This document shows positions 9,135 through 26,029 of a stretch of 26,029 bases of DNA, in pieces. This DNA comes from a virus (Duplodnaviria; Heunggongvirae; Uroviricota; Caudoviricetes): the IMG/VR virus record IMGVR_UViG_2671180637_000024, positions 1-26,029 of that record. One strand, written 5' to 3'. The position numbers and the translations under genes are program-made. The notes beneath the pieces were generated by a model that did not search any database, had not been told where the DNA came from, and worked only from the letters and a program-made list of their open reading frames with translations. Numbering within the stretch: position 1 is the first letter of the stretch; every line of letters starts with the position of its first letter.

Positions 9135-9510
9135 TGTAACAGATGTGCTTTTTGACCCCGATTTTTGCAACTTCAATTTGTGGGTAACACGCCGAGTGCA
9201 AACGGTGGATGAGGACGGGATCGGCAGCGACAGCGAAGTTAAAAAGCAGTTTGCCGGAGTCGTAACTGTTGATCGCTCTCTGGAAAACCGCCGTATGCAG
9301 GCCGGGCAGGTAATCAGTGGTGCAATTCTGATTGTGACGACTGAGCGACTGACGCAGGGACAGACTGGCCGTGATGCCGATATCGTGACGTATCAGGGCC
9401 GTGATTATCGTGTGACCTTCGTCGACCCGTATACAGCTTATGGGGCCGGATTCGTTCAGGCGCATTGTGAGTTACTGCCGTTTGATGGGGGAACTCCGGT
9501 TGAGCAATAA
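9121..9510 (+). CDS. putative head/tail completion protein
   Basis: 129-aa ORF overlapping the upstream stop by 14 nt; part of the co-directional structural operon. Confidence 0.5.
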   Translation: MPTLDVTDVLFDPDFCNFNLWVTRRVQTVDEDGIGSDSEVKKQFAGVVTVDRSLENRRMQAGQVISGAILIVTTERLTQGQTGRDADIVTYQGRDYRVTFVDPYTAYGAGFVQAHCELLPFDGGTPVEQ

Positions 9511-10048
9511 CACCAGTACAGAGCGCGGATGGTTAATACCAACCAGTGGCGATCCGGATTATGACGAAGCGCTCGACAGGCTGTTAAGCCAGTGGATGCG
9601 TAACGTTTCCGGTCTGTCTGCCGGGATGGTTCGCCCGCGCTGGCAGAAAGAGCAGCCGCCATTGCTACCGGCTGAAACGAACTGGTGTGCGTTTGGGGTT
9701 ATCGGATGGTCAGGTGATGACAGTCCGGCATTCACCAGACAGACCGATGATGGCTCTCAGCTCTGGCGGCATGAAACGATTGAGTGTATGGCTTCGTTTT
9801 ATGGTCCGGCGGGGATGGTGTATGCGTCCCGGTTTCGTGACGGTATATCTGTACCGCAGAACAACGCAGCACTGAATGCGCTGGGGCTGTCTCTTGGCGA
9901 TTACACAGGTCTGACTCCCTTCCCTGAACTTATTAATCAGCAATGGGTCCGCCGCTACGATATGACGGTGCGCCTGCGCCGGAAGGTTGTGCGCGAGTAC
10001 GGTATTAAATCGCTGGTGGAAGCACCAGTCATCTTTTTCGGAGATTAA
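9485..10048 (+). CDS. putative tail completion / sheath-stabilising protein
   Basis: ORF open from 9440; true start uncertain (ATG 9485, TTG 9500 or ATG 9440); immediately precedes the sheath gene. Confidence 0.45.
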   Translation: MGELRLSNNTSTERGWLIPTSGDPDYDEALDRLLSQWMRNVSGLSAGMVRPRWQKEQPPLLPAETNWCAFGVIGWSGDDSPAFTRQTDDGSQLWRHETIECMASFYGPAGMVYASRFRDGISVPQNNAALNALGLSLGDYTGLTPFPELINQQWVRRYDMTVRLRRKVVREYGIKSLVEAPVIFFGD

Positions 10049-10051
10049 GCT

Positions 10052-11197
10052 ATGGCACAGGGCTTGCCTGTATCAAACGTTGTTAATGTTGATGTGATCA
10101 TGTCGCCGCGTGCAGCATCAGGGCGAAATTTTGGTGCATTACTCATTCTCGGCCCATCCACAATCATTCCGGTAAGTGAGCGCATTCGCCGTTATTCTGC
10201 CGCGGAAGATATTGGAAAAGATTTTGGCGTGGAATCACCAGAATATAAGGCTGCGCAGGTGTTTTTCTCACAATCACCGAAACCTCAGGAGGTTTTTGTT
10301 GGTCGTTGGGTGAAAACGAAGGGAGACAGCGAACAGGCCACGCCTGAGACGCTGGAGCAGGCTGTGAATGCCATGCTCGATTATACTTCATGGTATGGGC
10401 TGGGGATTGCAGACGATGAAGATATTCCGGATGCAGACTGGCTGAAAGTGGCTGCGGCGATCGAATCCTCTTCTGTAAGCCGTATTCTGGCGATTACGAC
10501 AAGCGATGAGAAATGCCTGCAGACTGCATCCAGCGATGATTTGGCATCAAAACTGAAAACCGCCGGATATTCACGCAGTTTTATTCAGTATTCATCGGGT
10601 AATAAATACGCTGCGTTATCTGCATTTGGCCGGGCATTCACGGTTAATTTCAATGGCAGTAATACCGCGATTACGCTCAAGTTTAAGCAGGAGCCGGGTG
10701 TCGGGTATGAAACACTGACAGTCAGCCAGGCATCGGCACTTGATGCAAAAAACTGCAATGTGTTCGTGTACTACCAGAATGATACGGCTATCCTCCAGCA
10801 GGGAGTGATGGCTAACGGCGATTTCTTTGATGAACGCCACGGCCTGGACTGGTTACAGAATTATGTGCAGACCAGCCTCTATAACCTGCTTTATACCAGC
10901 ACCACGAAAGTTCCCCAGACTGAAGCCGGTATTACCCGACTGTTATCAAATGTTGAAAAATCACTGGATCAGGCCGTTCAGAATGGACTGATTGCTCCGG
11001 GCGTATGGAACGGGGGCGACCTTGGCCAGTTGTCATCAGGTGACACGCTGCCCAAAGGTTATTACGTATACGCCCAGCCGCTGGATGAACAGGCACAATC
11101 AGAACGTGAAGCCCGTAAGGCTCCGGTGATTCAGGCTGCAATAAAACTTGCAGGCGCGGTTCATTACGCTGACGTACAGATTAACGTTGTTCGCTAA
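10052..11197 (+). CDS. tail sheath protein
   Basis: 381-aa product directly upstream of a tube-sized gene, chaperone with frameshift and tape measure: the canonical contractile-tail order. Confidence 0.6.
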
Positions 11198-11207
11198 GGG
11201 GAAGTGA

Positions 11208-11648
11208 ATGTCTACCTATTCTTTTATGGATGTCACTGCGACGCTGACCAGGCCGACCGGTTCGATTGACCTCGGGTACGGTTCGGCAAGTTCTGAGGAG
11301 GGGATTGTGGTTGCGATGGGCGGTCCTAAAAACACCATGACCATCGGTGCTGATGGCGAAGTGATGCACAGCCTCCATGCAGATAAAAGCGGGACGATTA
11401 CCGTTAACCTTCTGAAGACATCACCGACAAATAAAAAATTGTCGCTGGCGTATAACGCACAGAGCCAGTCTTCTGCCACATGGGGGAATAACGTTATCGT
11501 GATCCGCAACAAGGTCAGCGGCGACATCATCACGGCACGCAGTGTTGCGTTCCAGAAACAACCGGATAACGCCAACGCTAAAACCGGTAATACGATGCCG
11601 TGGGTGTTTGACTGCGGCAAGATTGACCAGGTTCTCGGGGAGTTTTAA
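11208..11648 (+). CDS. tail tube protein
   Basis: 146-aa product between sheath and tail assembly chaperone. Confidence 0.55.
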   Translation: MSTYSFMDVTATLTRPTGSIDLGYGSASSEEGIVVAMGGPKNTMTIGADGEVMHSLHADKSGTITVNLLKTSPTNKKLSLAYNAQSQSSATWGNNVIVIRNKVSGDIITARSVAFQKQPDNANAKTGNTMPWVFDCGKIDQVLGEF

Positions 11649-11651
11649 TAC

Positions 11652-12104
11652 ATGGAATTCGAAATTAAAGGCGTGAAATATCGCGCGGCAAAACTCAGCG
11701 TTTTTGACCAGCTGAAAGTGACCCGTAAACTTCTTCCGGTACTGGCGGGAATGATGTCAGATTTCGGGAGCATTCGCTCCCGTTTGCCTGCTGACGGCAA
11801 AATCGACACCGTGAAATTCGAGCAGTTAAAACCGGTGTTTGAAACCATGCTCCCGCGTATCGCTGAGGAACTGTCTTCCCTGACCGAAGATGACACCGAT
11901 GCGATTATTCATCCCTGTCTTGCGGTGGTATCGCGGCGTCATATGGACGGATGGGTTCCGGTATTTACCCAGGGCGAACTGATGTTTGATGATATTGACT
12001 TGCTGGTCATGCTGCAGCTGGTGGCGCGGGTGGTCGCCGATTCGCTGGGAAATTTTTTGCCTACACCCCTTACCAGCACGACGCAGAGCCTGCAACAGGG
12101 CTGA
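11652..12104 (+). CDS. tail assembly chaperone (frame-0 product)
   Basis: 150-aa ORF directly upstream of the tape measure gene, with a slippery run AAATTTTTTG near its 3' end and an open -1 frame extension. Confidence 0.6.
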   Translation: MEFEIKGVKYRAAKLSVFDQLKVTRKLLPVLAGMMSDFGSIRSRLPADGKIDTVKFEQLKPVFETMLPRIAEELSSLTEDDTDAIIHPCLAVVSRRHMDGWVPVFTQGELMFDDIDLLVMLQLVARVVADSLGNFLPTPLTSTTQSLQQG

Positions 12105-12292
12105 CGTTTAACAGCCTGCCGGACGGGCTGTCCTACCTTCTCAATCCGGTTGACGCCGGGTTAATTCCTTATACAGCACTTAAAGATGGCTCTGTCGATT
12201 TGTACGATATTGCTCTTTTGAATGACCATCTGGCGGTAAAAGCGGATAACCAGCGGCGCATTGAGAAATGGAGAGAGGATAATGAACGCTGA
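12050..12292 (+). CDS. -1 frame extension of the tail assembly chaperone (predicted programmed frameshift product, G-T type)
   Basis: The frame shifted by -1 is open from the slippery heptamers A_AAT_TTT (12050-12056) / T_TTT_TTG (12053-12059) to TGA at 12290-12292, encoding …TFNSLPDGLSYLLNPVDAGLIPYTALKDGSVDLYDIALLNDHLAVKADNQRRIEKWREDNER; it has no start codon of its own. Confidence 0.45.
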   Translation, partial: KFFAYTPYQHDAEPATGLTFNSLPDGLSYLLNPVDAGLIPYTALKDGSVDLYDIALLNDHLAVKADNQRRIEKWREDNER

Positions 12293-14270
12293 AACTATTA
12301 AAGATTTCCTCGTCTCGCTTGGCTTCAGTGTGGATGATGCAGGAGCGAAAAAGTTCGGTTCTGTCCTCGCCGGTACAACTGCAAATGTCATCAAAATGGG
12401 GCTGGCCGTTGAAGGAGCCGCGCTGTCCGTGGTGGCCTTCACGGCTAAGATCGCCTCCGGTCTGGATAATCTTTACTGGGCGTCACAGCGCACTGGAGCG
12501 ACAGTCCAGGGAATTCAGTCTATTGGCTATGCGGTTTCGCAGGTTGGCGGCAGCGTGGACGCTGCGCGATCTTCTCTGGAAAGCCTCTCCCGGTTTATTC
12601 GTAATAATCCCGGTGCAGAGGGATTTCTGAATCGCCTGGGGGTACAGACACGGGATGCCAGCGGTAACATGCGTGACATGGCCGCTATTTTTACAGGTGT
12701 AGGCCAGAAGCTCAGCGGCATGCCGTATTACCGGGCTAACCAGTATGCGCAGATGCTGGGCATTGACGAAAATACCCTTATGGCGATGCGTCGGGGTGTG
12801 GGTGGTTTCTCCGGGCAGTACAGCGCAATGGCGAAAGCTATCGGCTTCAATGCTGACGAGGCGGCCAGAAGCTCCAACAAATTTATGACCTCCCTGCGTG
12901 AGTTTAGCGCGATGGCAGGCATGGCCCGTGACAAAATCGGCTCTAATCTTGCGGGTGGACTTGCGGGGTCGCTGGACACCCTGCGCCGCCATATCCTGGA
13001 CAACTTCCCGCGCATCGAGCAGACTCTGACGAAAGCCATAAAAGGCATTCTGGCGCTCGGGGATATTATCGGGCGGCTGTTCTTCAGACTGATTGAGGGG
13101 ACATCAGGCCTTATCACCTGGTGGCAATCGCTGGATAAGCAAACGCGGGAGTTGATCTCGCTGTTTGGCGCACTGACGATTGCGCTGCGCATTCTGAACA
13201 GTACGTTCTGGATGTCGCCGATTGGCCTCATTACCGCGCTGGCGGCGGGGATTGCCCTCCTGTGGGAGGACTATCAGACCTGGAAGGAAGGCGGCGACAG
13301 CCTGATTGACTGGGGCAAGTGGAAACCGGAGGTCGATGCCGCGCTGAAGATGGTTCGTGACCTTAAAACAACCGTTAACGACCTGGTGAAAGCGCTGGCG
13401 AAACTGCTCAATATTGACCTCAAATCATGGTCCCTGAAGTGGGATTTCAGCAACTTCATCGACCAGATGGGCGAATTCAGCAAAATGCTGAACATGATCG
13501 CCGACCTGCTCAACGCTATCAAAGATGGCCGCTGGGCTGATGCCGTCAGCATCGGCAAACAGATACTTAATCAGGGCAGCGAAAATCCGTCAGCGATGCC
13601 GATGGTTACAGACAGCGCTAACAGTACTGCCGACTGGATTAAAGAGCACTGGGGATTCGATCCCCGCAGCGTGGGCCGGACGGTACGCGGCTGGTTTGGT
13701 GATGATGAGCCGGAACAACATGCACAGGCTACGAAACGAGGAGAACGGAATAACAATCCGGGAAACCTTAATTTTGCTGGTCAGGCAGGGGCTTCTCTTG
13801 AACGCCCGGGCGGGCGATTTGCCAGATTTGAAACTGCCTTTGATGGATTACGGGCTCTTGCTCGTCAGTTAATGCTGTACGCCGGACGGGGAATAAACAG
13901 TGTGGAGAAAATTATCTCTACCTGGGCACCTGCGTCTGATAATAACAACACAACTGCGTATATCAGGGCTGTATCGCAACGACTGGGAGTGGATCCCCGG
14001 GCTGCCCTGAATATGAGCGATCCGCAAACCATGTCAGCATTGATGAGCAGCATTATCCAGCATGAAAATGGAAGAAATATCTATTCTCGAGAGCTGATTA
14101 ATAAGGCTGCCGTGGCGGGAATTAGTGGCAAAATGACAGAGGTTAACCAGCAAAATACTTACCACATTTACGGTGGCGGAGATCCGCACGCTGTCGGTAA
14201 TGAGGTTGCACGTCGGCAACAGTCTGCAAATGCTCAGGTCATGCGAAGTAATCAGGTGAGGGTGGGTTAG
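12282..14270 (+). CDS. tail tape measure protein
   Basis: Long helical protein rich in A/G/L/S/M after the chaperone/frameshift pair; ATG at 12282 preceded by GGAGAGAGG is the likely start (ORF track start 12261). Confidence 0.8.
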   Translation: MNAETIKDFLVSLGFSVDDAGAKKFGSVLAGTTANVIKMGLAVEGAALSVVAFTAKIASGLDNLYWASQRTGATVQGIQSIGYAVSQVGGSVDAARSSLESLSRFIRNNPGAEGFLNRLGVQTRDASGNMRDMAAIFTGVGQKLSGMPYYRANQYAQMLGIDENTLMAMRRGVGGFSGQYSAMAKAIGFNADEAARSSNKFMTSLREFSAMAGMARDKIGSNLAGGLAGSLDTLRRHILDNFPRIEQTLTKAIKGILALGDIIGRLFFRLIEGTSGLITWWQSLDKQTRELISLFGALTIALRILNSTFWMSPIGLITALAAGIALLWEDYQTWKEGGDSLIDWGKWKPEVDAALKMVRDLKTTVNDLVKALAKLLNIDLKSWSLKWDFSNFIDQMGEFSKMLNMIADLLNAIKDGRWADAVSIGKQILNQGSENPSAMPMVTDSANSTADWIKEHWGFDPRSVGRTVRGWFGDDEPEQHAQATKRGERNNNPGNLNFAGQAGASLERPGGRFARFETAFDGLRALARQLMLYAGRGINSVEKIISTWAPASDNNNTTAYIRAVSQRLGVDPRAALNMSDPQTMSALMSSIIQHENGRNIYSRELINKAAVAGISGKMTEVNQQNTYHIYGGGDPHAVGNEVARRQQSANAQVMRSNQVRVG

Positions 14271-14857
14271 TGGATATTCTCTCTACACTTTTTCATCAGC
14301 AGAGCAGAAAAATAGGAATGATTGTTCCCAGTGTTGTTATTTCAGAGAAGCATACAGATATGCTTGAAATAACAGAGCATCCGGTAGAGGTTGGGGCCGC
14401 TGTCGCTGATCATGCCTATAAAAAACCGTCAGAAGTGGTGATGGAGGTTGGTTTCGCCGGTGGCGGCGCATTGCTGGATTTTGCCAGTAATCTGACGGCT
14501 ACCAGCCTGCTCGGCCTGAGTCCTCAGCAGACGTATCAGGAGCTACTGGATCTGCAGGAAAGCCGTATCCCCTTCGATGTGGTAACCGGTAAACGACTGT
14601 ACAGCAACATGTTGATCCGGGCGTTGGAAGTGACGACGGACAAGACAACCGAAAACGTCCTGTCCGCCGTCCTCACCCTGAGGGAGGTCATTATCTCCCG
14701 GACACAGCAGATTACCGTCGCGGATAAAACCAACATGAAGGAAGGGGCCAGCACGTCGGCGGTACAGAACAGCGGCAACAAAACCACAAAGCCTCCAGAT
14801 ACTTCACTGCTGAAAAGCATCACGGGTAACGTGGCGTCATTACTGGGGGGCGGCTAA
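14270..14857 (+). CDS. tail/baseplate assembly protein
   Basis: 195-aa ORF starting with GTG overlapping the tape measure stop (TAGTG), with GAGGGTGGG upstream; function inferred from position. Confidence 0.5.
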   Translation: MDILSTLFHQQSRKIGMIVPSVVISEKHTDMLEITEHPVEVGAAVADHAYKKPSEVVMEVGFAGGGALLDFASNLTATSLLGLSPQQTYQELLDLQESRIPFDVVTGKRLYSNMLIRALEVTTDKTTENVLSAVLTLREVIISRTQQITVADKTNMKEGASTSAVQNSGNKTTKPPDTSLLKSITGNVASLLGGG

Positions 14858-15159
14858 TGACAATTCAGGAAATTCCGCTGACAGCGGACAACCAGCAGTT
14901 CAGCATCGTCCTGGGGGGTGTCACCTGGCGGATTAGCATCATATGGCGCGATCTGTACTGGATTATGGACCTGCAGAACGACAGAGGGGAGCCGGTAATC
15001 TCCGGTATTCCTCTTGTCACTGGTGCTGACCTGCTGGCGCAGTACGCCTGTATGGGGCTTGGTTTTAAGCTGGTGGTGGTCTGTGATGACAACACACAGG
15101 ATTACCCCACAAAAACTGACCTGGGCGGTCGCAGCCATTTACTGGTATCAACGGAGTAA
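14857..15159 (+). CDS. small tail/baseplate protein
   Basis: 100-aa ORF with TAATG overlap to the upstream gene. Confidence 0.5.
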   Translation: MTIQEIPLTADNQQFSIVLGGVTWRISIIWRDLYWIMDLQNDRGEPVISGIPLVTGADLLAQYACMGLGFKLVVVCDDNTQDYPTKTDLGGRSHLLVSTE

Positions 15160-15161
15160 GC

Positions 15162-16223
15162 ATGTCACAGAACTGGATGAGACATTTCGAGCTGCAGCTT
15201 GTGGACGGGAACGGTCAGGGAATTGAGCTAAGTGATTTCAAAGTCACCTTTACGATCGACTGGTTCAACATCAGCAGCGCGTCCCGGGTAGGGACTATCA
15301 AAATTTATAACCTCTCGGCAGATACTGTGAACCGAATTACCGGGCAGGAGTTTTCGAAAGTGCGTCTGATTGCGGGTTACGACGGTATCGCGCCGGAGGG
15401 GTCGGCAAGCGACGTCGGGACAGTGCGGGAAGTTGACGCGGCGGACGTGGGCCAGAGTGATGGTCGCAACTACGGACTGATTTTCAGCGGTGAAATTCGC
15501 TACTCGGTCACAGGAAAAGACAGTCCGGTTGATTCCTACGTCCTGATTCAGGCAGCAGATACTGATCTGGCTTTTGCCACCAGTATAACCTCACAGACGC
15601 TGGCTGCCGGTTACACGGTCGCTGATGTGAACCGTGCGCTGATGAAAGACTTCGAAGCCAAAGGTGTGACCGAAGGCCTGACGCCTGAAATGCCTGCTAC
15701 TGTATTCCCCCGGGGGCGGGTACTCTTTGGCATGACGCGGCATCTAATGGATAACGTAGCCGGGCAATGTGGCGCAACATGGCAATTCGTGGACGGTCAG
15801 CGCCAGATGGTGGCGAATAACGAATATGTTCATGAAGCGATTGTGCTCAACAGCGCTACCGGGCTTATTGGCATGCCGCAGCAGACTATCGGTAACGGCG
15901 TAAACGTCCGCGCGCTTATTAATCCGAACATCCGGGTTAACGGACTTATTCTGCTGGATCAGGCTTCCGTGTATCGTACTGCCTTGTCGAACAACGATAT
16001 TGCGATGGCTGGTGGTCAGATCACCGACCAGAACACGGATGGAAATATCACGCTAAGCGGCACCACATCGCAGCCTGCCAGCATCGCAACGGATGGCGTT
16101 TATATTGTGCGCGGGATTATGTACACTGGCGACACAAGGGGCCAGGCGTGGTACATGGATATGATGTGCGAAGCGCGTGGCGCGGCGGATCTGTATACGC
16201 GATCGGCTTTGCAAAGGGGATGA
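15162..16223 (+). CDS. putative baseplate hub protein (P2 gpD / Mu gpP-like)
   Basis: 353-aa product between tape-measure-proximal genes and baseplate spike; size and position match hub proteins of P2/Mu-type tails. Confidence 0.55.
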   Translation: MSQNWMRHFELQLVDGNGQGIELSDFKVTFTIDWFNISSASRVGTIKIYNLSADTVNRITGQEFSKVRLIAGYDGIAPEGSASDVGTVREVDAADVGQSDGRNYGLIFSGEIRYSVTGKDSPVDSYVLIQAADTDLAFATSITSQTLAAGYTVADVNRALMKDFEAKGVTEGLTPEMPATVFPRGRVLFGMTRHLMDNVAGQCGATWQFVDGQRQMVANNEYVHEAIVLNSATGLIGMPQQTIGNGVNVRALINPNIRVNGLILLDQASVYRTALSNNDIAMAGGQITDQNTDGNITLSGTTSQPASIATDGVYIVRGIMYTGDTRGQAWYMDMMCEARGAADLYTRSALQRG

Positions 16224-16226
16224 GCA

Positions 16227-16568
16227 ATGAGGGGTATTATTTTTCTGTTAGCTGTCTTTTCTGCGTGCAGCGCGTGGGCGGATGGCTTCACGGTTAAATG
16301 CGGTGGCTACACTATGGTTGCAAACCAGGGCGAGTTATCGACTATCAACGGTGAAAGAGTTACCTCTCAAAAAATCACCGAACTGGGTACCAATGGTTTG
16401 AAAGTAGACATGGGGCTTATGCCTGCCAAAGACGGTAACAACTACGGCTTTGAATACATTCGTCGCCCTGGTACCGAAACGCGATTCCTGAATGTCCAGC
16501 TTCTGCAGAACAGCATGGATGCGCCGAAAATCATCGGATCTTTCCCTTGTAAAAAAGTGGCTGGGTGA
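16227..16568 (+). CDS. small exported protein (signal peptide; possible lipoprotein)
   Basis: N-terminus MRGIIFLLAVFSACSAWADG: hydrophobic core then either an AXA signal peptidase I site (AWA|D) or a lipobox-like FSAC; 113 aa; no structural-protein character. Confidence 0.55.
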   Translation: MRGIIFLLAVFSACSAWADGFTVKCGGYTMVANQGELSTINGERVTSQKITELGTNGLKVDMGLMPAKDGNNYGFEYIRRPGTETRFLNVQLLQNSMDAPKIIGSFPCKKVAG

Positions 16569-16661
16569 AGGTAACCTGAAATTCGTAACGCCTGAAAAAC
16601 AACAAAATGTGCTCTAAAAACTGTTGTTTTTTGAGACGAGCGATTACACTGCACTGACTTT

Positions 16662-16688
16662 TTGATGGTGGATTGCCATCGATATGCT
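16662..16688 (+). promoter_or_regulatory. candidate sigma70-like promoter for the accessory cassette
   Basis: TTGATG (16662-16667), 15-nt spacer, TATGCT (16683-16688), about 30 nt upstream of the cassette start codon; weak match, spacing suboptimal. Confidence 0.3.
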
Positions 16689-16717
16689 ACTTCATTAAAG
16701 CCAGGAATAACTAAAAC

Positions 16718-17449
16718 ATGAGTTTAGCGCAGCCAAAATCAGGAGAACTGTTAGATCTTCTGACTCCTTCATTAACTAAGGGTGAAAACCTTCTGAGTGA
16801 GTTTGAAATCCATCGAATCATTCGTGAAGCGAAGAAACTACCTGAACGTTATCAGGGGCTATCAATTGAAGGCTTAGCTAAGCTTGTTCTTGGTGAAATA
16901 GATGAAGGATGTTCACTCTGTGAGCGGGGGTTGAGAATAGCGCCTAACGATCCAGTTTCTTTTTGTAACTATACGATTGCGCTGCGTAACTTAGGTTTGC
17001 ATGCTCGCCAGTATGTGATGATTCAGAAAGCATCTGATTCACTTAATCCAACGATATTGGCTGAGGTTGCTACAATTTCTGCATACTGGGTTGATATCGA
17101 TTTGCTTGAAAAGGTGATGCCGATGCTAACTGCAATGGAAGTACCGCGCCCTGAAGATATGGGCAAATGGTATGACACGCTCAATTATCTGCATACCCAA
17201 AAAGATCATGCTCAGGAGCTAAAAACTATTGGGCGGCTCATGATGAACGTTGCAGAAAAGTACCGCGCTCGTCTTGCTGGCGCTCATGCTTTTTATGTAA
17301 TGTCAGAACTTGATACGCTGTTCGTTGAAGTCAAAACAGACGATCCAGTGCTTCTTTCGCAGATGAATAATGCCTTGGCTGATGAGATTATTATTGCGGG
17401 GCTTGCGGATTCAGAATGCGTCGGATGCTTTGAAGCCGGGGAACTCTAA
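16718..17449 (+). CDS. accessory cassette gene A: hypothetical helical protein (243 aa), candidate partner of the HEPN-like protein
   Basis: Clean ORF with AGGA upstream; lower GC than flanking tail genes; predicted mostly helical with a TPR-like stretch (GLRIAPNDPVSFCNYTIALRNLGLHARQ); no nucleotidyltransferase GS…DxD motif seen. Stop overlaps gene B start (TAATG). Confidence 0.6.
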   Translation: MSLAQPKSGELLDLLTPSLTKGENLLSEFEIHRIIREAKKLPERYQGLSIEGLAKLVLGEIDEGCSLCERGLRIAPNDPVSFCNYTIALRNLGLHARQYVMIQKASDSLNPTILAEVATISAYWVDIDLLEKVMPMLTAMEVPRPEDMGKWYDTLNYLHTQKDHAQELKTIGRLMMNVAEKYRARLAGAHAFYVMSELDTLFVEVKTDDPVLLSQMNNALADEIIIAGLADSECVGCFEAGEL

Positions 17450-17877
17450 TGTCGGTTGAGCATACCTGTTTTCTTGAATTGGCTAAGCATTCCCTGGCTC
17501 TAAACGGTGAGATGTGGACGAGAAATGCTATTAGCCGAGCATACTATGGTATGTACCATTCCGCCTTACGGATCACCAACAATCTGGTACCGACCGCTAC
17601 ACAAGATGGTGAAAAACTAAAAGGTGGAGTTCACATGCGAGTCTATACGGCCTTTTGTAGTGGTGAGGCAGCTGCACTTAACGATGTTGATGTTAACGCA
17701 GTAAAGAAAATCGGCGTTAAACTGAAAATGACGCATGCCCAACGTGTTAATTCTGATTACAAGCTTGAGCGGAAAATCAACCGGATTACCGCGAGAAGTG
17801 TAATTCTGGATGCGGAAGAGGTCGATGCAATCGTTAATCAATTACTGAAGATTGGTGATGACTCGTTAACTGCATAA
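17449..17877 (+). CDS. accessory cassette gene B: HEPN-like domain protein (142 aa)
   Basis: Contains SRAYYGMYHSALR (aa 29-41), GGVHMRVYTAF (aa 59-69) and RVNSDY (aa 99-104) followed by an acidic C-terminal helix; this matches my recollection of the classical HEPN consensus (SRAYYAMFHAAKALL … H … R..ADY). Assignment is from memory, not an HMM hit. Confidence 0.6.
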   Translation: MSVEHTCFLELAKHSLALNGEMWTRNAISRAYYGMYHSALRITNNLVPTATQDGEKLKGGVHMRVYTAFCSGEAAALNDVDVNAVKKIGVKLKMTHAQRVNSDYKLERKINRITARSVILDAEEVDAIVNQLLKIGDDSLTA

Positions 17878-17900
17878 GCTGAAATTTCTCAAAATTCAAA

Positions 17901-17923
17901 CCCGCCACTTGGCGGGTTTTTTG
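17901..17923 (+). terminator. rho-independent terminator downstream of the accessory cassette
   Basis: cccgcc-actt-ggcggg perfect 6-bp GC stem (17901-17916) followed by TTTTTT (17917-17922). Confidence 0.7.
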
Positions 17924-17941
17924 CTTTCTGGAGCCTACTAA

Positions 17942-18694
17942 ATGGCAGTATCTGACCAGACCCGCAGCGGCGACCTTGCCGAAACATTTAAATCCGAACA
18001 GGAAACAACAAAGAACCAGATCCGTGTCGCCTTGCCTGGCATTGTTCAGTCATTCGCTCCTGATGCGGTGACGGCGGTTGTACAGCCTGCTATCCGTTAC
18101 GTTGAAATTGATAACGACGGCAACCGCATTACCAAAAATTACCCATTGCTGGTGGATGTGCCAGTGGTATTCCCGCGTGGCGGAAGCTGTACGCTAACGT
18201 TTCCAGTTAAAGCCGGTGATGAATGTTTGGTGATTTTTGCCGATCGTTGTATTGATTTCTGGTGGCAGAGTGGCGGGATACAGGAGCCGGTCGATGACAG
18301 AATGCATGATTTATCGGATGCGTTTTGTATTGTCGGTCCCCAGTCGCAGGCAAGGAAGATTAGCGGTATTAATACCAGTGCCACACAGTTGCGTAGTGAT
18401 GACGGCAGCACCTATTTTGAGCTTAATCCTGATACCAGGAAAATTAAAATTGTCGCTCCGGGGGGCCTTGATGTGGTTGCCCCTCTGGCTGATTTTTCTG
18501 AGAAAGTAACCATTCATGGCCTGTTAACCTGGATGGGAGGCATGGTGGGGTCTGTTGTTTCTGGTGTGGCTTCAAAAATCACTGGTGCTGTTGAGTTTTT
18601 GGGTAGCGTGAAGGCTAACGGCAAGCCAATCGATGATACGCACACTCATGGTGGTGTTCAGCGCGGTGGAAGCAATACCGACGGAGTAAACTGA
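17942..18694 (+). CDS. baseplate spike / assembly protein V-like
   Basis: 250-aa product with glycine-rich C-terminus, directly upstream of W- and J-like baseplate genes (V-W-J-I order of P2/Mu-type baseplates); GGAG Shine-Dalgarno. Confidence 0.65.
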   Translation: MAVSDQTRSGDLAETFKSEQETTKNQIRVALPGIVQSFAPDAVTAVVQPAIRYVEIDNDGNRITKNYPLLVDVPVVFPRGGSCTLTFPVKAGDECLVIFADRCIDFWWQSGGIQEPVDDRMHDLSDAFCIVGPQSQARKISGINTSATQLRSDDGSTYFELNPDTRKIKIVAPGGLDVVAPLADFSEKVTIHGLLTWMGGMVGSVVSGVASKITGAVEFLGSVKANGKPIDDTHTHGGVQRGGSNTDGVN

Positions 18695-19047
18695 TGCGAT
18701 ACAGACGTGAAGACGCCGATGGCGATTACACCTTTGGCAGCGGTGATGACACCTGGCTGATTAACTCACCGGAGGCCGTGGCGCAGGCGGTAAAAACGCG
18801 ATTCGAATTGTGGTATGGGCAATGGTTTCTCGACACCACCGAGGGGACTCCGTGGATCCAGTTCGTACTCGGTAAGCAGAAGCCGGAAACCTACAACCTG
18901 GCGATCCGTAAGCGCATCCTCGAAACGCAGGGCGTTAAATCAATCCTCTCTTTCAATACGACGGTGGATACCACGACCCGACGTGTCATGTTTTCCGCTG
19001 AAATCGACACTCTTTATGGAATAACGACTGTTACATCGGAGGCGTAA
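18694..19047 (+). CDS. baseplate protein W-like (gp25 family)
   Basis: 117-aa product, ATGA overlap with the upstream gene, between V-like and J-like genes. Confidence 0.65.
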   Translation: MRYRREDADGDYTFGSGDDTWLINSPEAVAQAVKTRFELWYGQWFLDTTEGTPWIQFVLGKQKPETYNLAIRKRILETQGVKSILSFNTTVDTTTRRVMFSAEIDTLYGITTVTSEA

Positions 19048-20246
19048 TGGCTCTGAACCTTGATTCTCTCGGTTTATCTGCAAAGGTAACCGCGGAGGGG
19101 ATCAGTGCGCCTGATTATCAGACGATACTCAGCACCCTGATTAGCTATTTTCAGCAGATTTATGGCAGTGATGCCTACCTCGAACCGGACAGCAAAGACG
19201 GCCAGATGGTGGCTCTGATGGCGCTGGCGATTCATGATGCCAATAATACGGCGATAACTGTCTACAACTGTTTTTCACCGGCAACCGGCTATGGGGCTGC
19301 ACTGACCAGTAACGTGAAAATAAATGGTATTTCACGTAAAGGCGCGACGAACTCTACGGTTGATTTGCTTCTTACAGGAACTGCCGGAACAACCATCATT
19401 AATGGCAGCGTGAAAGACAGTAATAATGTGATATGGCGTTTGCCTGCTTCAGTGGTGGTAGGCGTGAATGGTACAGTGATGGTGACCGCAACATGTTCCG
19501 TCAGTGGCGCAGTGGCGGCGCTGGCTGGAACTATCACTGAAATTAATACGCCAACCCGTGGCTGGGTTTCGGTAACCAATCCTGCTGCAGCCACTGTGGG
19601 CACTCCGGCAGAAACTGATGCGGAGTTACGTATCCGCCAGTCGCAAAGTGTTGCGTTGCCATCAATAACCCCATTTGAAGCACTGGATGGTGCTGTTTCT
19701 AATGTTACCGGTGTAACCCGCCACAAACTCTATGAAAACGATACTGGTTCGGAGGACGGTAATGGGTTACCGCCACACTCTGTTGCTGTAATTGTGGATG
19801 GCGGTGATGTGACGGATATTGCTCAGGCCATCAGAGGGAATAAAGGCCAGGGGACAGCCACTCACGGTACAACATCCGTTACGGTTCCGGATAAATACGG
19901 CAATCCCCATGTAATCAAATTCTCGCGTTCCAGTGATGTGCCTGTTTATGCCCGGATTAAATTAAAAGTTTTTACGGGTTATACCTCACAGATAGGGCAG
20001 CAGATCCAGCAGGCTATTTCCGACTATATCAATAGTCTTACGATCGGTGATTCGGTCCTTTTAAGTCGCATTTACTCACCGGCGAATCTTGGCGTGGTGA
20101 GTGGCGGGAATGCACGCTATTACGATATTCAGGAACTGACGATTGGGAAATCCCCGGGGGCTTTGTCGTCATCAAACATTGATATCAGATATAACGAATC
20201 TGCGTCCTGTACCCCGGAAAATATCGTTATAACGGTGGAGTCATGA
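19047..20246 (+). CDS. baseplate protein J-like
   Basis: 399-aa product following the W-like gene, TAATG coupling. Confidence 0.7.
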   Translation: MALNLDSLGLSAKVTAEGISAPDYQTILSTLISYFQQIYGSDAYLEPDSKDGQMVALMALAIHDANNTAITVYNCFSPATGYGAALTSNVKINGISRKGATNSTVDLLLTGTAGTTIINGSVKDSNNVIWRLPASVVVGVNGTVMVTATCSVSGAVAALAGTITEINTPTRGWVSVTNPAAATVGTPAETDAELRIRQSQSVALPSITPFEALDGAVSNVTGVTRHKLYENDTGSEDGNGLPPHSVAVIVDGGDVTDIAQAIRGNKGQGTATHGTTSVTVPDKYGNPHVIKFSRSSDVPVYARIKLKVFTGYTSQIGQQIQQAISDYINSLTIGDSVLLSRIYSPANLGVVSGGNARYYDIQELTIGKSPGALSSSNIDIRYNESASCTPENIVITVES

Positions 20247-20923
20247 GCAAATACACCGAACTAATCACAAACTACCACGCCACCAAACCTAAATTTCTTT
20301 CACATGTTGATCTGATGACCAGGCCGCTTATTGATGTTGCGGCTGCCACCAGAGGGCTGATTACTGCATTTGATATTGACTCTGCGGTTGGTGTGCAACT
20401 TGACATTCTGGGATTGTGGATCGGACGTAGCCGTGTTGTCAGCCAGCCTATCTCAGGTGTCTATTTCAGTTGGGATACCGACGGGCTTGGATATGATCAG
20501 GGGGTATGGCAGGGGCCATATGATCCTGATTCCGGATACATGTATCTCAGCGATGAAACTTATCGTGTCATTCTTAAAGCGAAGATTGCGATTAATAACT
20601 GGGACGGACGTAATGATTCGCTTCCGGCAATTCTTGACGCGGCAACAGCAGGATCCGGGCTGCGAATGCAGATAGTCGATAACCAGGACATGACGATATC
20701 GGTCTGGGTCTTTCCTGATACTGATATTTCAGATGTATCGCGTGAGTTAATTGCGGCAATTAAACAGGGGTATCTCACAGTAAAAGCCGCCGGGGTATGG
20801 GCGGGGGGCATTGAAACTCCTTCGGTGGAAACCCCATCGGAAGGCTCAAAATTTTTTGGTTTTGATATGGATAACGAATTCATCAGTGGTTTTGATGTAG
20901 GAGCATGGGGAGTATTACTCTGA
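20243..20923 (+). CDS. tail protein I-like (baseplate wedge/tail fibre attachment)
   Basis: 226-aa product between J-like and tail fibre genes, ATGA coupling at both ends. Confidence 0.55.
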
Positions 20924-21717
20924 TGGCGAAAAATGACTTTAAAGCGTTTGCAACTGATCGAAATGCCAATGTTATGTCGCAGGAGGAATGGGAAGCGTTG
21001 CCTGCGCTTTTATCCGGATTTACAGCAGGGAAAGCATCCAGTGCGCAGGTGAACAAAGCCATTCGACAGGCCAGCTTTATTGCTGCAGCTTTGGCCCAGT
21101 TTGTAAGTGACAAAACGCAACGGGATGTGCTTGATAATGGTGATCTGCCCGGTTTTGTTGAATTGCTTGGATCGGGGTTTGCTGTTGAATACCTGAGCCG
21201 CAAAAATCCGTTTGGCGATATCAAATCGGACGGCACAGTGAAAACGGCTCTCGAAAACCTTGGTTTGGGAGAAGGTGCCCCAGCTATTGGCGTTCCGTTC
21301 TTCTGGCCCTCCGCGGCAATGCCAAATACTGTAATCGACAGCTGGTCCGGTATGGTGTTTTTGAAGTTCAACGGGGCGAAATTTTCTGCCTCTGATTACC
21401 CTGTGCTGGCGAAAGTGTTTCCTTCGCTGGTATTACCTGAAGCCCGCGGTGATTTCATTCGTATCTGGGATGACGGGCGAGGTGCAGATGGTGGTCGCGA
21501 ATTATTAAGCTGGCAGGAAGCTACAAACTTTTCTCAGTTTGCCGGGAATATAGGCGGAGGTGCGGGACACGCAATTAACTTTCATGATGGCATTGCCGGA
21601 AATCAGCCAGGATTTTCACGATTTAATTTCACCAGTAACTCTGTGGGTGATGGTGTGAATTTTGTTGCTGTCAGACCGCGAAATATTGCATTTAACTTTC
21701 TGGTGAGGGCTAAATAA
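20923..21717 (+). CDS. tail fibre protein (constant N-terminal part plus currently expressed variable C-terminal part)
   Basis: Precedes a tail fibre assembly gene; contains the left hix/gix-like crossover site in-frame at 21248-21273. ATG 20923 (ATGA overlap, GGGGAG upstream) preferred over ATG 20905. Confidence 0.7.
21248..21273 (+). repeat. left recombination (crossover) site of the invertible tail-fibre segment
   Basis: CTCTCGAAAACC-TT-GGTTTGGGAGAA resembles the hixL site as I recall it (TTCTTGAAAACC-AA-GGTTTTTGATAA); present in inverted orientation at 22994-23019. Confidence 0.6.
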
Positions 21718-22310
21718 TGAAACCTGTTTTTGATAAAAATGGGCTGGCTACAGTGCCGGGCGATATGCGTTGTTTTTATTATGATGCTGAAACATCTGAG
21801 TATACGGGCTGGTCTGATGAATATATTAATACTGGCGTAAGTATGCCCGCCTGTTCCACTGGTATTGACCCGGGCGAAAACATTCCGGGGAAAGTGGCAG
21901 TATTTACGGGTAAGGGATGGAGCCATGAAGAAGACCATCGCAATGAGACTGTTTACTCAACAGAAAATGGCGCAGCTGTTACAGTGGATTATATCGGTGC
22001 CATCAAAAACGGTTATGTCACGCTTTCACCGTTAACGACATATGATAAATGGGATGGTGAGAAATGGGTGACAGATACTGAGGCACAGCATAACGCCGCA
22101 GTAGAAGCAGCAGAAGCACAGCGCCAGTCACTGATTGATGCAGCAATGGCTTCCATTAGTCTGATTCAGCTGAAATTACAGGCCGGACGGAAACTGACTC
22201 AGGCAGAAACAACCCGACTTAACGCCGTGCTGGATTACATTGACGCGGTGACGGCAACAGATACCAGCACCGCGCCGGATGTCATCTGGCCTGAACTGCC
22301 GGAGGCGTAG
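21717..22310 (+). CDS. tail fibre assembly protein (expressed orientation)
   Basis: 197-aa product following the tail fibre gene with TAATG coupling; C-terminal TSTAPDVIWP motif shared with the oppositely oriented copy. Confidence 0.75.
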   Translation: MKPVFDKNGLATVPGDMRCFYYDAETSEYTGWSDEYINTGVSMPACSTGIDPGENIPGKVAVFTGKGWSHEEDHRNETVYSTENGAAVTVDYIGAIKNGYVTLSPLTTYDKWDGEKWVTDTEAQHNAAVEAAEAQRQSLIDAAMASISLIQLKLQAGRKLTQAETTRLNAVLDYIDAVTATDTSTAPDVIWPELPEA

Positions 22311-22710
22311 GCCATTCAATATCGGGTGCTGTTGACGTATCAACACGCATCAGCAGCACACGGTATTTCTTCCATTGGGTGAGAGCTGTAGCTTCTTCAT
22401 CAGTTGCGATATCAGCATCAACAGCATCCTGATGCCAGGATATTTCACTGTCAGCTTTTTCCCGTAATTGGGATTTTTTAACTTCAGCAATAGCTATTAA
22501 TTCCTTTTTGGTCGGCTGAGGAATATCTATCAGTGCTGGTTTTCCATTCAGTGTTCCAATCTGTTTTCCTGGTGGAATATCCATAAATAACTTTTTATGT
22601 TCTTCCTCACTGACTATTAAACCATCATCAGGCCACAGACCTGATGCCTCAAATTTTTCTTTCTCCGATATGGGGAAAAAGCCATTTGCTTTAGCGCTCC
22701 ATACGTACAT
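22282..22710 (-). CDS. alternative tail fibre assembly protein (silent orientation)
   Basis: 142-aa minus-strand ORF converging on and overlapping the + strand tail-fibre assembly gene by 29 nt; C-terminal TSTAPDIEWP motif; directly follows the alternative fibre segment. Confidence 0.7.
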   Translation of the reverse strand: MYVWSAKANGFFPISEKEKFEASGLWPDDGLIVSEEEHKKLFMDIPPGKQIGTLNGKPALIDIPQPTKKELIAIAEVKKSQLREKADSEISWHQDAVDADIATDEEATALTQWKKYRVLLMRVDTSTAPDIEWPTPPAVQAR

Positions 22711-22711
22711 A

Positions 22712-23005
22712 TCAATACCCCACCGCTATAATGTCCACATTAAATCCCCCGGGACCTGCCTGCCAGATGCTGGCCCCTGTTAATGATTTTGTTTGATGAA
22801 CAACCGCCACATTTGCTGGCGATAGTGTTTCAGTTGTTACAGTACCGATATCATTCCAGTTAATTGAGATGGAATAGTTCGTTGTTGTAAACGACCGGGG
22901 GAAAGTTATGTGTCTTGCATTGGTGCCAACAGGAAATCCAAGATAAACACGCTGAATTATCATTCCTCCAGGTAACATAACCCAGTTAGCACCTTCTCCA
23001 AAACC
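22712..23005 (-). CDS. alternative tail fibre variable C-terminal segment (promoterless; expressed only after inversion)
   Basis: Minus-strand frame …GFGEGANWVML… aligns with the + strand fibre at …GLGEGAPAI… exactly at the crossover site; inversion at the 2-bp core would give an in-frame fusion to the constant N-terminal 113 codons. Confidence 0.6.
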   Translation of the reverse strand, partial: GFGEGANWVMLPGGMIIQRVYLGFPVGTNARHITFPRSFTTTNYSISINWNDIGTVTTETLSPANVAVVHQTKSLTGASIWQAGPGGFNVDIIAVGY

Positions 23006-23019
23006 AACGTTTATGAAAA
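22994..23019 (+). repeat. right recombination (crossover) site of the invertible segment
   Basis: TTCTCCAAAACC-AA-CGTTTATGAAAA; its reverse complement matches the left site over TTGGTTTnGGAGAAGGTGC (19 of 20). Confidence 0.6.
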
Positions 23020-23073
23020 TGCAGAAATAACGAGCAAATGGCATCATTCCTGCTTTTGTCAGGGAGATCTACC

Positions 23074-23628
23074 ATGCTTATTGGCTATGTACGTGTGTCA
23101 ACAAATGACCAGAACACAGATCTACAACGTAATGCGCTGAACTGTGCAGGATGCGAGCTGATTTTTGAAGACAAGATAAGCGGTACAAAGTCCGAAAGGC
23201 CGGGGCTGAAAAAACTGCTCAGGACATTATCGGCAGGCGACACACTGGTTGTCTGGAAGCTGGATCGGCTGGGGCGCAGTATGCGGCATCTTGTCGTGCT
23301 GGTGGAGGAGTTGCGCGAACGAGGCATCAACTTTCGTAGTCTGACTGATTCAATTGATACCAGCACACCAATGGGACGCTTTTTCTTCCATGTGATGGGT
23401 GCCCTGGCTGAAATGGAACGTGAACTGATTGTTGAACGAACAAAAGCAGGACTGGAAGCTGCTCGCGCACAGGGACGAATTGGGGGACGTCGTCCCAAAC
23501 TTACACCAGAACAATGGGCGCAGGCCGGGCGATTAATTGCATCAGGCGTTCCTCGCCAGAAGGTGGCGATCATCTATGATGTTGGCGTATCGACTTTGTA
23601 TAAGAAGTTTCCGGTCGGAGATAAATGA
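23074..23628 (+). CDS. site-specific DNA invertase, serine recombinase (Hin/Gin/Cin/Pin family)
   Basis: N-terminus MLIGYVRVSTNDQNTDLQ with the catalytic serine context, plus C-terminal HTH GRRPKLTPEQ…VGVSTLYKKFP, closely matching Hin/Gin as I recall them; ATG 23074 with AGGGAG upstream (ORF track start 23038). Confidence 0.9.
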   Translation: MLIGYVRVSTNDQNTDLQRNALNCAGCELIFEDKISGTKSERPGLKKLLRTLSAGDTLVVWKLDRLGRSMRHLVVLVEELRERGINFRSLTDSIDTSTPMGRFFFHVMGALAEMERELIVERTKAGLEAARAQGRIGGRRPKLTPEQWAQAGRLIASGVPRQKVAIIYDVGVSTLYKKFPVGDK

Positions 23629-23688
23629 AACCGTAGCACGTCGTATGCAAGAAGATCGTGCTGCGGTTTATGCTTATCACTTAAAGAC

Positions 23689-24558
<870 letters not shown>

Positions 24559-24641
24559 CTAACCCTTTGAATTTACATAGCGCAAAAAGATACCTTTCCT
24601 CATAATGTGAGCTAATTTTATGTTTCGTTTGATGATCGGGT

Positions 24642-24703
24642 CGGTCTCGAAAACCGGAGTAGGGGCAACTCTACCGGGGGTTCAAATCCCCCTCTCTCCG
24701 CCA
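24642..24703 (+). other. 3' fragment of tRNA-Ser(CGA) (serU-like), the putative prophage attachment-site core (attR-type junction)
   Basis: CGGTCTCGAAAACCGGAGTAGGGGCAACTCTACCGGGGGTTCAAATCCCCCTCTCTCCGCCA matches the anticodon arm through the CCA end of E. coli tRNA-Ser(CGA) as I recall it; no matching 5' half upstream, so it is a partial copy. Confidence 0.6.
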
Positions 24704-25276
24704 CTTTATCAATGACTTATCTCCCGACTTCCCGTCTTGCTTTTCCTAAACAGAACAATCGTAGAATATTCTTGAAGGGTTAGATCGTCACTGTTTTCTG
24801 TTCGATACTGTGACATTCAGCACTTGATTCGCTATGGATCTGACAGGAAGGTTTTGAGCGAAAATCTGCAGTTATTCAGTCGTTTTCTTATCGGTCACCA
24901 TTATTCTTTTAGACATTGATCCTACAAAGCTGCCGCAAAGTTGGTGGTGGGAACTGAAGTTGCGTAGAGAAGGGGTCAATACCCGGAGGCAAACATGGGC
25001 TGGCAAAAGTGTAGCGGTATTAGGCGCAGCTATTTAGCCTAGTTATGTTTTATGAAAACTTGATATCATATAAGTGTCTTACTTATTGGCTGTAAATAAG
25101 TTTTTCCTAAGGAATTGTTTCTTGAGTATCATTTGTAACTGTAACGGAATTTATAATCCTTTGCTTTATTGTTACGGTATTTTTTATCACACCCTATTTT
25201 TAGTGGTTTTTTATACTGAAGTTTGGCAAAGTGAACTTTATATACATATACTTCATCCTGGTTTCAGTTAAATTGG

Positions 25277-26029
25277 GTGGATGATATGGCAACTACATGT
25301 TCAGTTATATTGATTTTGGAGTCCTTTGATGTTTATTTCGGAAAAGAGAGTGTGTTTCTGGAGAGAGGTTCATCTGTACTTGTCGACTCTAGCTCTAGAG
25401 ATTTTTTCCTGACATATCCTGAAAGAGTGATAGTGGCGGATTTTGGCGCTGAGTTTATTAGTCGCTATTTGAAAGCTAATAACTTAAGGGATATTTCTGA
25501 TTGTAGGGAATATCCATCTTATTTAAAAATAAACTTTGCTGACTTCAGTTTAATTAAAGGATTAATTAGTTGGGCTAATCACTGTGCTGAATACATAGAA
25601 ATTTTTGATGAGTCTATTGCTTTTACATGTCTCTCTGCATTTTCTTCTGAAAAACAATTTGGAGTATTTCTGTTTGGATGTTTGAAAAGCACAGGGGCTA
25701 AAGTTAAAACGATTATTCATACGGATTTATCTGCACCATGGCGTCTTAAGGATATATCATCAAGATTATATCTCAGCGAAAGTTTACTAAAGAGGAAATT
25801 GAAAGAAGAGGGGGTATCATTCAGTAAGATCATACTTGATGAGAGGATGCAAATGGCTGAATATTTACTCAGCACTCGTTGTTATCCTATTAGTAAAGTA
25901 GCTAAGGTCTGTGGTTATGCCAGTGTCTCATACTTTACTTATGTATTTAGACGTTATTTTGGTGTTTCTCCAAGTCAATACTCTCAGAGGAGTTCAGAAA
26001 GTAAAATTCTTACTCACCAGGGAATCTGA
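25277..26029 (+). CDS. AraC/XylS-family transcriptional regulator
   Basis: C-terminal region …ISKVAKVCGYASVSYFTYVFRRYFGVSPSQY… is a typical AraC-type HTH; AT-rich gene in AT-rich flank outside the prophage; stop at the window end. Confidence 0.7.
   Translation: MDDMATTCSVILILESFDVYFGKESVFLERGSSVLVDSSSRDFFLTYPERVIVADFGAEFISRYLKANNLRDISDCREYPSYLKINFADFSLIKGLISWANHCAEYIEIFDESIAFTCLSAFSSEKQFGVFLFGCLKSTGAKVKTIIHTDLSAPWRLKDISSRLYLSESLLKRKLKEEGVSFSKIILDERMQMAEYLLSTRCYPISKVAKVCGYASVSYFTYVFRRYFGVSPSQYSQRSSESKILTHQGI

Follow-up and report, generated by a model that had tools for sequence, protein, structure and literature searches.

A conserved intrinsic terminator at the baseplate hub-spike junction as the probable border of a moron hotspot in a lambdoid late operon

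We analyzed a 26,029-nucleotide (nt) stretch of tailed-phage DNA, IMG/VR record IMGVR_UViG_2671180637_000024 (hereafter, the window), which is a prophage late operon, that of a lambdoid myovirus. Between a two-gene cassette and the baseplate spike gene, the window contains a GC-rich hairpin followed by six Ts (positions 17898–17922), whose sequence is, in every testable respect, that of a canonical intrinsic terminator. Our favored explanation, which we consider probable, is that this terminator is the fixed downstream junction of a moron hotspot in a late operon that depends on the antiterminator Q, where it would end Q-independent transcripts and be read through by Q-modified RNA polymerase. 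Morons are defined as genes with their own promoter and terminator that are expressed from a repressed prophage; the tail operon of HK97 supplied the first described case (PMC3594210). The elements at the junction are:

17898–17922, + strand: intrinsic (Rho-independent) terminator with stem AAACCCGCC/GGCGGGTTT, loop ACTT and T6, conserved in about 150 related loci.
17930–17933, + strand: Shine-Dalgarno (SD) sequence GGAG of the spike gene, 7 nt past the T run and part of a conserved terminator-SD-ATG block.
17942–18694, + strand: baseplate central spike gene (membrane-puncturing; N-terminal spike domain and GpV apex motif; PF18352 at 1e-42, PF18946; RefSeq annotation in strain WAT).

The 5' arm of the hairpin, AAACCCGCC, starts at 17898 and is followed by the loop ACTT and the 3' arm GGCGGGTTT, which ends at 17919; the T6 tract covers 17917–17922 and is succeeded by GCTTTCT. 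The stem has nine perfect pairs, six G-C and three A-U, of which the A-U pairs use the first three Ts, and it may equivalently be described as a 6-base-pair (bp) all-GC stem abutting T6. The element lies in a noncoding gap on the coding strand, 20 nt downstream of the stop codon of its 5' neighbor (TAA, 17875–17877), with a further 19 nt between the end of the T run and the spike ATG (17942). A landmark sequence for the terminator/spike-start junction is GGCGGGTTTTTTGCTTTCTGGAGCC.

The calculated free energy is −15.1 kcal/mol for the hairpin and −17.9 kcal/mol for its 66-nt context (z = −2.66). In a lenient scan of positions 8000–26029, the element ranked first among terminator-like matches, while the scan as a whole showed no enrichment (26 matches observed vs. 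18.2 expected). Under a strict definition (at least six Watson-Crick pairs, at least five of them G-C, abutting T6 or longer), it was the sole match on both strands of the window, and dinucleotide shuffles gave 0.007 such matches per window (2/300). A preliminary description, made from the letters of the window alone, had called this GC hairpin with T6 a strong terminator and placed it in the tail-gene operon directly after the cassette, about 20 bp ahead of the spike start; the rank, the uniqueness under the strict definition and the shuffles bear out the first statement, and the gene map agrees with the second. The strict shuffles, together with the conservation described below, rule out a chance hairpin. 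A function on the minus strand was also rejected, as there are no converging minus-strand genes and the reverse T-tract is merely TTTGAATTTT. An Rfam 15 scan of the whole window gave zero family matches at the gathering score.

Related loci were fetched by their spike protein, 80 from contigs sampled at one genome per species and 80 from IMG/VR, and the hub gene, a 113-amino-acid gene and the spike gene were located in each locus by tblastn; 353 Escherichia coli genomes carry the region. The full set of related loci numbered 175. On the left side, the interval in the window is bordered by two genes:

15162–16223, + strand: baseplate hub gene (phrog_196 at 4e-88, Pfam E217_GP41), the conserved backbone to the left of the hotspot.
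16227–16568, + strand: 113-amino-acid gene of unknown function (phrog_3443), the left border of the hotspot.

Both flanks were found in 153 loci, which yielded 135 distinct hub-spike intervals with 64 protein clusters, nearly all encoded on the + strand. The commonest cargo in the 153 loci is the same two-gene family as the cassette of the window. In E. coli genomes, the stretch between the 113-amino-acid gene and the spike gene is swapped for unrelated genes, including DUF2335, DUF4282, a YafO-toxin pair and a 170-amino-acid HEPN-like protein, and further cargo comprises Fic/Doc, T5orf172/MUG113 and Mu-F-like domains, small membrane proteins and lipoproteins. Such cargo types (HEPN, YafO, Fic/Doc, T5orf172, small membrane proteins, lipoproteins) are typical of lysogen-expressed genes, and the cargo at this site consists of accessory genes, probably for defense.

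The right border of the exchanged DNA is sharp. In the first 15 loci, read by eye, all 15 have unrelated sequence 5' of the hairpin and a conserved hairpin, T run, GGAG and ATG from there onward, and megablast homology to phages with other cargo starts exactly at 17898. A strict hairpin and T run were detected 13–25 nt ahead of the spike ATG in 136 of the 140 cargo-bearing loci; the four exceptions comprise two with a longer loop or with paired tandem terminators, and only L150 and L154 truly lack a terminator. Terminator-bearing loci come from genera including Escherichia (E. coli), Citrobacter, Salmonella, Pantoea, Erwinia, Yersinia, Rahnella, Serratia and Photorhabdus, and their spike identity falls as low as 45%. 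The same terminator was found in all ten "empty" sites, where 30–119 nt separate the hub or the 113-amino-acid gene from the spike; these sites come from Rahnella, Pantoea, Pseudescherichia, Salmonella, Kalamiella, Erwinia and Rouxiella, and several of them are just 34–47 nt long and consist of a stop codon, hairpin, T-tract, SD and ATG with nothing else. The terminator is missing from all eight loci with abutting or overlapping hub and spike genes, which shows that tail gene expression can dispense with it.

At the left border, homology between cargo types ends at or just before the stop codon of the 113-amino-acid gene. This gene is itself mosaic, with 55–73% identity among E. coli prophages that share 95–99% identity in hub and spike, and is missing from Arsenophonus, Pseudescherichia and one Salmonella among the lineages compared; it may be part of the variable region rather than a core baseplate gene. 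In Pseudescherichia vulneris NBRC 102420 (L068), a homolog of the 113-amino-acid gene and a 69-amino-acid open reading frame (ORF) form a tandem array ahead of the spike, in which they take turns three to four times, which looks like an amplified left-border unit.

A second, rarer insertion point was observed between the spike gene and the gp25/W-like gene (L177/L015, L058, L067, L027/L030), with a small ORF in Salmonella phage SEN34 (17073–17314, L177/L015) and inserts of about 0.7 kilobases (kb) and about 3 kb in L058 and L067, respectively. One contig labeled Chryseobacterium sp. 18061 (CACSKA010000001.1, L016) bears this prophage region, which is enterobacterial; it has a spike 89% and a hub 92% identical to those of the window and is probably a mislabeled or contaminated assembly.

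In the window, the site is occupied by the following genes and candidate promoter:

16662–16688, + strand: candidate cassette promoter, TTGATG-15 nt-TATGCT, whose −10 element ends 29 nt ahead of the ATG; weak in the window allele.
16718–17449, + strand: cassette gene 1, 243 amino acids with a TPR-like N-terminal half (phrog_22649), always paired with the HEPN gene.
17449–17877, + strand: cassette gene 2, a HEPN-domain protein of 142 amino acids that carries both an R-X6-H motif (RAYYxMYH) and, also conserved, an R..ADY motif.

The stop codon of the first gene overlaps the start of the second. The cassette is foreign in base composition, with a GC content of 0.39–0.46, compared with 0.50–0.56 in its flanks. 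Searched singly against Pfam, the two cassette proteins gave no match. A family profile of the 243-amino-acid protein matched, in the N-terminal half, consensus TPR proteins (E = 4e-11), and a profile of the HEPN family, built from ten divergent homologs, matched PDB entries 9xbd (3e-10), 9xbc (3e-9) and the UPF0332 protein 2hsb (3e-6). The Pfam HEPN model matches two of the ten family members, and residues R30, H37, R99, D103 and Y104 are invariant. A PADLOC search with the cassette proteins gave no significant defense-system match (best hits HEPN_IX, E = 0.009, and PDC-M71B, E = 0.037). Tight coupling of a HEPN effector to a partner is typical of toxin-antitoxin or abortive-infection modules, and the cassette may function as one of these; prophage-encoded HEPN defenses are known (PMC13043305, PMC11087260).

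Seven divergent alleles of the cassette have better sigma-70-like elements at the same position as the candidate promoter, with the −10 element ending 22–32 nt before the ATG (e.g., TTGACT-18-TAAAAT, TTGACG-18-TAGAAT and TTGAC[GT]-17-CACAAT); three of the seven exceed at least 96% of shuffles. Between the stop codon of the 113-amino-acid gene and the candidate promoter, a hairpin rich in A and T was also observed, AAAAACAACA ... TGTTGTTTTTT, together with a T run (16596–16636); it may be a weak terminator that keeps the cassette apart from transcription coming from upstream.

An alignment of 58 distinct terminator sequences showed that the core stem and T run are more than 90% conserved, that the GGAG columns are invariant or nearly so, and that the loop and 5' flank vary freely. 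The T run contains five to eight Ts in the related loci. For the nine stem pairs, standard pairing was found in 87.5% of cells, compared with 36–59% when the 3' partners were slid by one to three columns. Two-sided changes occur in seven cells at three pairs; among them, four sequences have U-A in place of C-G, one has A-U in place of G-C and one has G-C in place of C-G. Compensatory stem variants include CCTGC/GCAGG, CCCACC/GGTGGG, AGCCGC/GCGGCT and ACCGCC/GGCGGT, the last two of them outside the alignment register. The covariation is real and modest, since the CCCGC/GCGGG stem is largely conserved as sequence.

The preliminary description had tied the terminator to the cassette. It does follow the cassette, but it is common to every cargo type and to the empty sites, and an origin with the window cassette as the sole account is thereby ruled out. 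Among E. coli backbones with spikes 95–99% identical, each cargo type has its own 5' flank and loop signature, and the exchange junctions therefore lie in or just past the 3' arm. The terminator thus belongs to both cassette and backbone and is the joint between them. In Yersinia artesiana (L038), tandem terminators, AAGAACCCGCTCCGGCGGGTTTTT and CCCAGCCTTTGCGCTGGGTTTTTT, were observed about 90 nt upstream of the spike, which agrees with a stacking of cassettes whose units have each retained a terminator.

Given such a joint, the conserved sequence might serve recombination itself, as a boundary common to cassettes and backbones by which cargo is swapped, with terminator activity incidental. 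The homology breakpoints at the hairpin agree with this idea, as do the co-segregation of hairpin variants with cargo and the constancy of the 3' arm, T run and SD; CCCGC..GCGGG terminators are also generic in enterobacteria and could offer microhomology. However, a recombination boundary needs no free-loop hairpin, no compensatory stem changes and no T run, and the left border has no comparable conserved sequence. We regard this explanation as very improbable, and it is in any case compatible with the moron/Q proposal and does not exclude it.

The tight block of hairpin, U-tract, SD and ATG, which is conserved despite fully variable upstream sequence, could also act at the RNA level in the read-through transcript, either by blocking 3'-5' exonucleases or by keeping the U-tract and SD of the spike unpaired whatever cargo lies upstream. 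U-rich leaders and intercistronic stem-loops affect translation and mRNA stability, which lends some general plausibility to such a role. Nevertheless, T6–T8 abutting a GC stem is a specific signature of termination that neither RNA-level role requires, and the spacing from T run to SD varies from 2 to 12 nt across the alignment; we consider this alternative improbable.

The empty sites bear on a further alternative, in which the terminator is a cargo-independent signal of the phage backbone: either a relic of a boundary between a sheath-to-hub and a spike-to-fiber operon, or a deliberate checkpoint, by which the spike, wedge and fiber genes would be left to Q-modified polymerase or be attenuated relative to the tail genes upstream, with cargo accumulating where insertions are tolerated. 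Retention in ten of ten empty sites from several genera, some of which are compact (34–47 nt) and show no trace of earlier cargo, is in line with it, and so is the onset, precisely at the hairpin, of the homology shared with phages that carry other cargo. In P2, the hub gene D is the last gene of the FI-FII-E-T-U-D operon, and the spike gene V is the first of a separate operon, V-W-J-I-H-G; this would be an analogous operon boundary at the same hub/spike junction. Two distant phages, Klebsiella LPKP33 and Erwinia LS-2018a, have no comparable terminator at the hub-spike junction: hub and spike genes abut in LS-2018a, and the virulent phage LPKP33 has a 480-nt hub-spike spacer with a hairpin (no + strand T run) and a promoter-like sequence, which might be counted in favor of a backbone signal. 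Against such a signal, the eight abutting loci do without the terminator, and the 5' flank and loop variant of the hairpin travel with cargo type and not with the backbone. Attenuation would also have no obvious stoichiometric logic, because hub, tape-measure and spike proteins are all low-copy; with low-copy baseplate components on both sides, we judged a stoichiometric attenuator to be weak. In this form, a backbone signal seems to us unlikely, and the probability of a cargo-independent terminator in any form lies, in our estimate, between unlikely and doubtful.

A related possibility is that the terminator is a resident, selected "dock" of the backbone, which would gate the spike, wedge and fiber genes to Q-modified polymerase and at the same time pre-insulate the site, making it the only position of the tail operon in which promoter-bearing foreign genes could settle without harm. 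Such a dock would explain why more than 60 protein families are found just upstream of the terminator and why it is retained at empty sites in at least seven genera. We put this forward tentatively, as a possible but doubtful account.

To return to the moron/Q proposal, its central argument concerns the space downstream of the hairpin. In about 150 loci, the 13–25 nt from hairpin to spike ATG hold the T-tract and SD, with nonhomologous cargo upstream. A promoter between terminator and spike was rejected for the window: 19 nt are left, and TACTAA, which is the best −10-like hexamer, lies directly against the ATG. Since the DNA 5' of the hairpin is nonhomologous among loci and only the T-tract and SD lie 3' of it, there is no conserved restart promoter. 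With no room for such a promoter, the spike gene, which is the first gene dependent on read-through of 17898–17922, and all genes downstream of it must be transcribed through the terminator.

A Q gene is annotated in relatives of the window. The hotspot region is 99.8% identical to that of a prophage of E. coli WAT, which sits beside torS/torT and has a lambdoid gene order (int, xis, exo, bet, gam, kil and cIII; repressor, cro and cII; O, P, ren and nin genes). The nin genes are followed by an "antiterminator Q family protein" (WP_000512806.1), two transfer RNA (tRNA) genes, holin, lysozyme and Rz. Among 5,426 complete E. coli genomes, the nearest relative of the whole window was 97.2% identical over 90%, and the whole-window relative Eco_23-2667 has the identical Q (WP_000512806.1) at the same place. 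In Salmonella phage SEN34 (spike 67% identical) and Klebsiella phage ST11-OXA48phi15.1 (spike 53% identical), a Q gene lies directly before the lysis/structural genes. The Q of WAT and close relatives has 162 amino acids, compared with about 260 in SEN34 and the Klebsiella relative, and the two kinds appear to belong to different Q families.

On this basis, the following course of events can be proposed. In the lysogen, RNA polymerase without Q would stop at about 17922, whether it came from the cassette promoter or from a stray upstream start, and the TPR-HEPN cassette would in this way be expressed without transcription of the spike, baseplate and tail-fiber genes. Upon induction, polymerase would acquire Q at the late promoter that precedes the lysis genes, and the Q-modified polymerase would ignore both the terminator at 17898–17922 and a second one after Rz, so that the whole 22-kb operon would be made. 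Q-dependent read-through is established lambdoid biology (PMC7547250). Insulation of the cassette might then be the selective reason for the terminator. The preliminary description had offered read-through by antitermination and insulation of a lysogenic cassette as an either/or choice. Each half gains support, the former from the lack of room for a restart promoter and the Q annotated in relatives; the latter is plausible given the low GC content, the HEPN protein with its partner and the promoter-like element in allelic cassettes. They are not alternatives, however, but complementary halves of one model.

Several points weigh against this proposal. Q lies outside the window, which begins in Rz, and was read from relatives. 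A simple consensus scan of the Q-to-holin interval of WAT, which carries the two tRNA genes, found no convincing late promoter, qut or tR'. The promoter match in the window allele scores no better than shuffles. Termination and read-through at 17898–17922 are themselves predictions from sequence, and the covariation supporting the stem is modest. Finally, the terminator is kept at every empty site, and insulation of a cassette therefore cannot be the whole reason for it.

The rest of the window is in keeping with a late operon. It begins with Rz (75–524), followed by the small and large terminase subunits, portal, head genes, sheath, tube, chaperone and tape measure; after the tape measure come a Dit-like protein, the baseplate plug, the hub, the 113-amino-acid gene, the two-gene cassette, the terminator and the spike. 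On the 3' side of the spike are a gp25/W-like gene, Baseplate_J, DUF2612 and tail fiber and assembly genes. The genes listed in the operon from Rz to the tail fiber are all on the + strand. Two further features belong here:

558–578, + strand: second terminator-like hairpin, CCTCGC-GAT-GCGGGG followed by CTTTTTT, 34 nt past the Rz stop codon.
18694–20923, + strand: gp25/W-like sheath initiator, Baseplate_J and DUF2612, with the tail fiber genes next; all are downstream of the terminator and oriented alike.

If the former hairpin acts as its sequence suggests, late transcription must cross it as well in order to reach the terminase genes. It lies in a 440-nt gap between Rz and the small terminase gene (525–966), which also holds an ORF on the minus strand (763–951) with a minus-strand terminator-like hairpin (856–832). 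This gap looks like a second moron or insertion site of the late operon.

Beyond the baseplate genes, a tail fiber gene and a Caudo_TAP assembly gene on the + strand (20905–22310) face a second Caudo_TAP gene and a gp53-like fiber C-terminus on the minus strand (22282–23047), and a serine invertase (Resolvase and HTH_7 domains) is encoded next to them (23038–23628). This arrangement suggests that 20905–23628 is an invertible tail-fiber segment and hints at host-range switching of the Gin/Pin type. At the end of the prophage, a 274-amino-acid protein with a LEM-3-like GIY-YIG nuclease domain (23689–24513, minus strand) may be a further accessory or defense gene, and the AraC-family gene next after it (25277–26029) is possibly host DNA.

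The arrangement fits the textbook model of morons and Q antitermination, involves no new mechanism and leaves the current understanding of termination and antitermination unchanged. What is mildly new is a terminator that is resident at the backbone junction and not borne by the cargo; delimiting the hub-spike accessory hotspot in lambdoid myoviruses is a useful addition. In the literature on the hub-spike hotspot and on SEN34/Brunovirus, we found nothing specific. The site would be a natural example of how a prophage could express accessory or defense genes inside an essential structural operon without turning on virion genes, and the proposal predicts termination in the lysogen and Q-dependent read-through once it is induced. 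In practical terms, the terminator/SD/spike-start block is a precise landmark for collecting the cargo of an uncharted hotspot in prophages of E. coli and other Enterobacterales, and this cargo (64 clusters, with the recurrent TPR-HEPN pair, YafO, Fic/Doc and T5orf172) provides candidates for new defense or exclusion systems. The terminators at empty sites also raise the question of whether terminators precede and attract morons or morons bring terminators. If the terminator were a resident dock, accessory or defense hotspots in Q-type phages could be predicted from internal terminators that are conserved.

Comparison with known systems places these features in context. In the lambda Q system (pR'-qut-tR'), as here in the relatives, Q lies immediately upstream of the lysis/structural genes, the late genes have one orientation over more than 20 kb, and internal intrinsic terminators are to be ignored. 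In contrast to lambda, Q, pR' and tR' are outside the window here, and the tail module is myoviral whereas that of lambda is siphoviral.

With regard to HEPN systems (HepS of Gifsy-1, PMC13043305; Tha of Staphylococcus aureus prophages, PMC11087260; HEPN-MNT/UPF0332), cassette gene 2 shares the RX4-6H motif and a profile match to HEPN structures, and is likewise prophage-encoded with a tightly coupled upstream partner. That partner, however, is TPR-like and not an MNT nucleotidyltransferase, and HepS differs in being a solo protein at another genomic location. At the sequence level, the cassette is not a member of the named defense families (best PADLOC match HEPN_IX, E = 0.009).

The anti-phage hotspots of P2 and P4 (Rousset et al. 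2022, PMC9122126) resemble the present site in that many unrelated, mostly small cassettes, a good number of them toxin- or defense-like, occupy a fixed position between conserved phage genes. The differences are that the host element here is a lambdoid myovirus, that the site lies between hub and spike with a conserved terminator as its downstream border, and that a defense role of the cargo is putative.

The closest parallel in organization is found in morons such as HK97 gene 15 and lambda lom/bor (Juhala/Hendrix, PMC3594210). As in those cases, extra genes lie between late-operon genes that are adjacent in some relatives (ten empty and eight abutting loci), their GC content differs from that of neighboring genes, and they are flanked by a factor-independent terminator and, as a candidate that is weak in the window allele, a sigma-70-type promoter. 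Adjacency in relatives, base composition and the downstream terminator thus all correspond to the moron pattern. Morons are presumed to be active in the repressed prophage, with the late operon read through in lytic growth; here, the same behavior is predicted. Unlike in those morons, the terminator is common to all cargo and to the empty sites and marks a backbone junction rather than being moron-borne, and the site is the hub/spike junction of a contractile-tail module.

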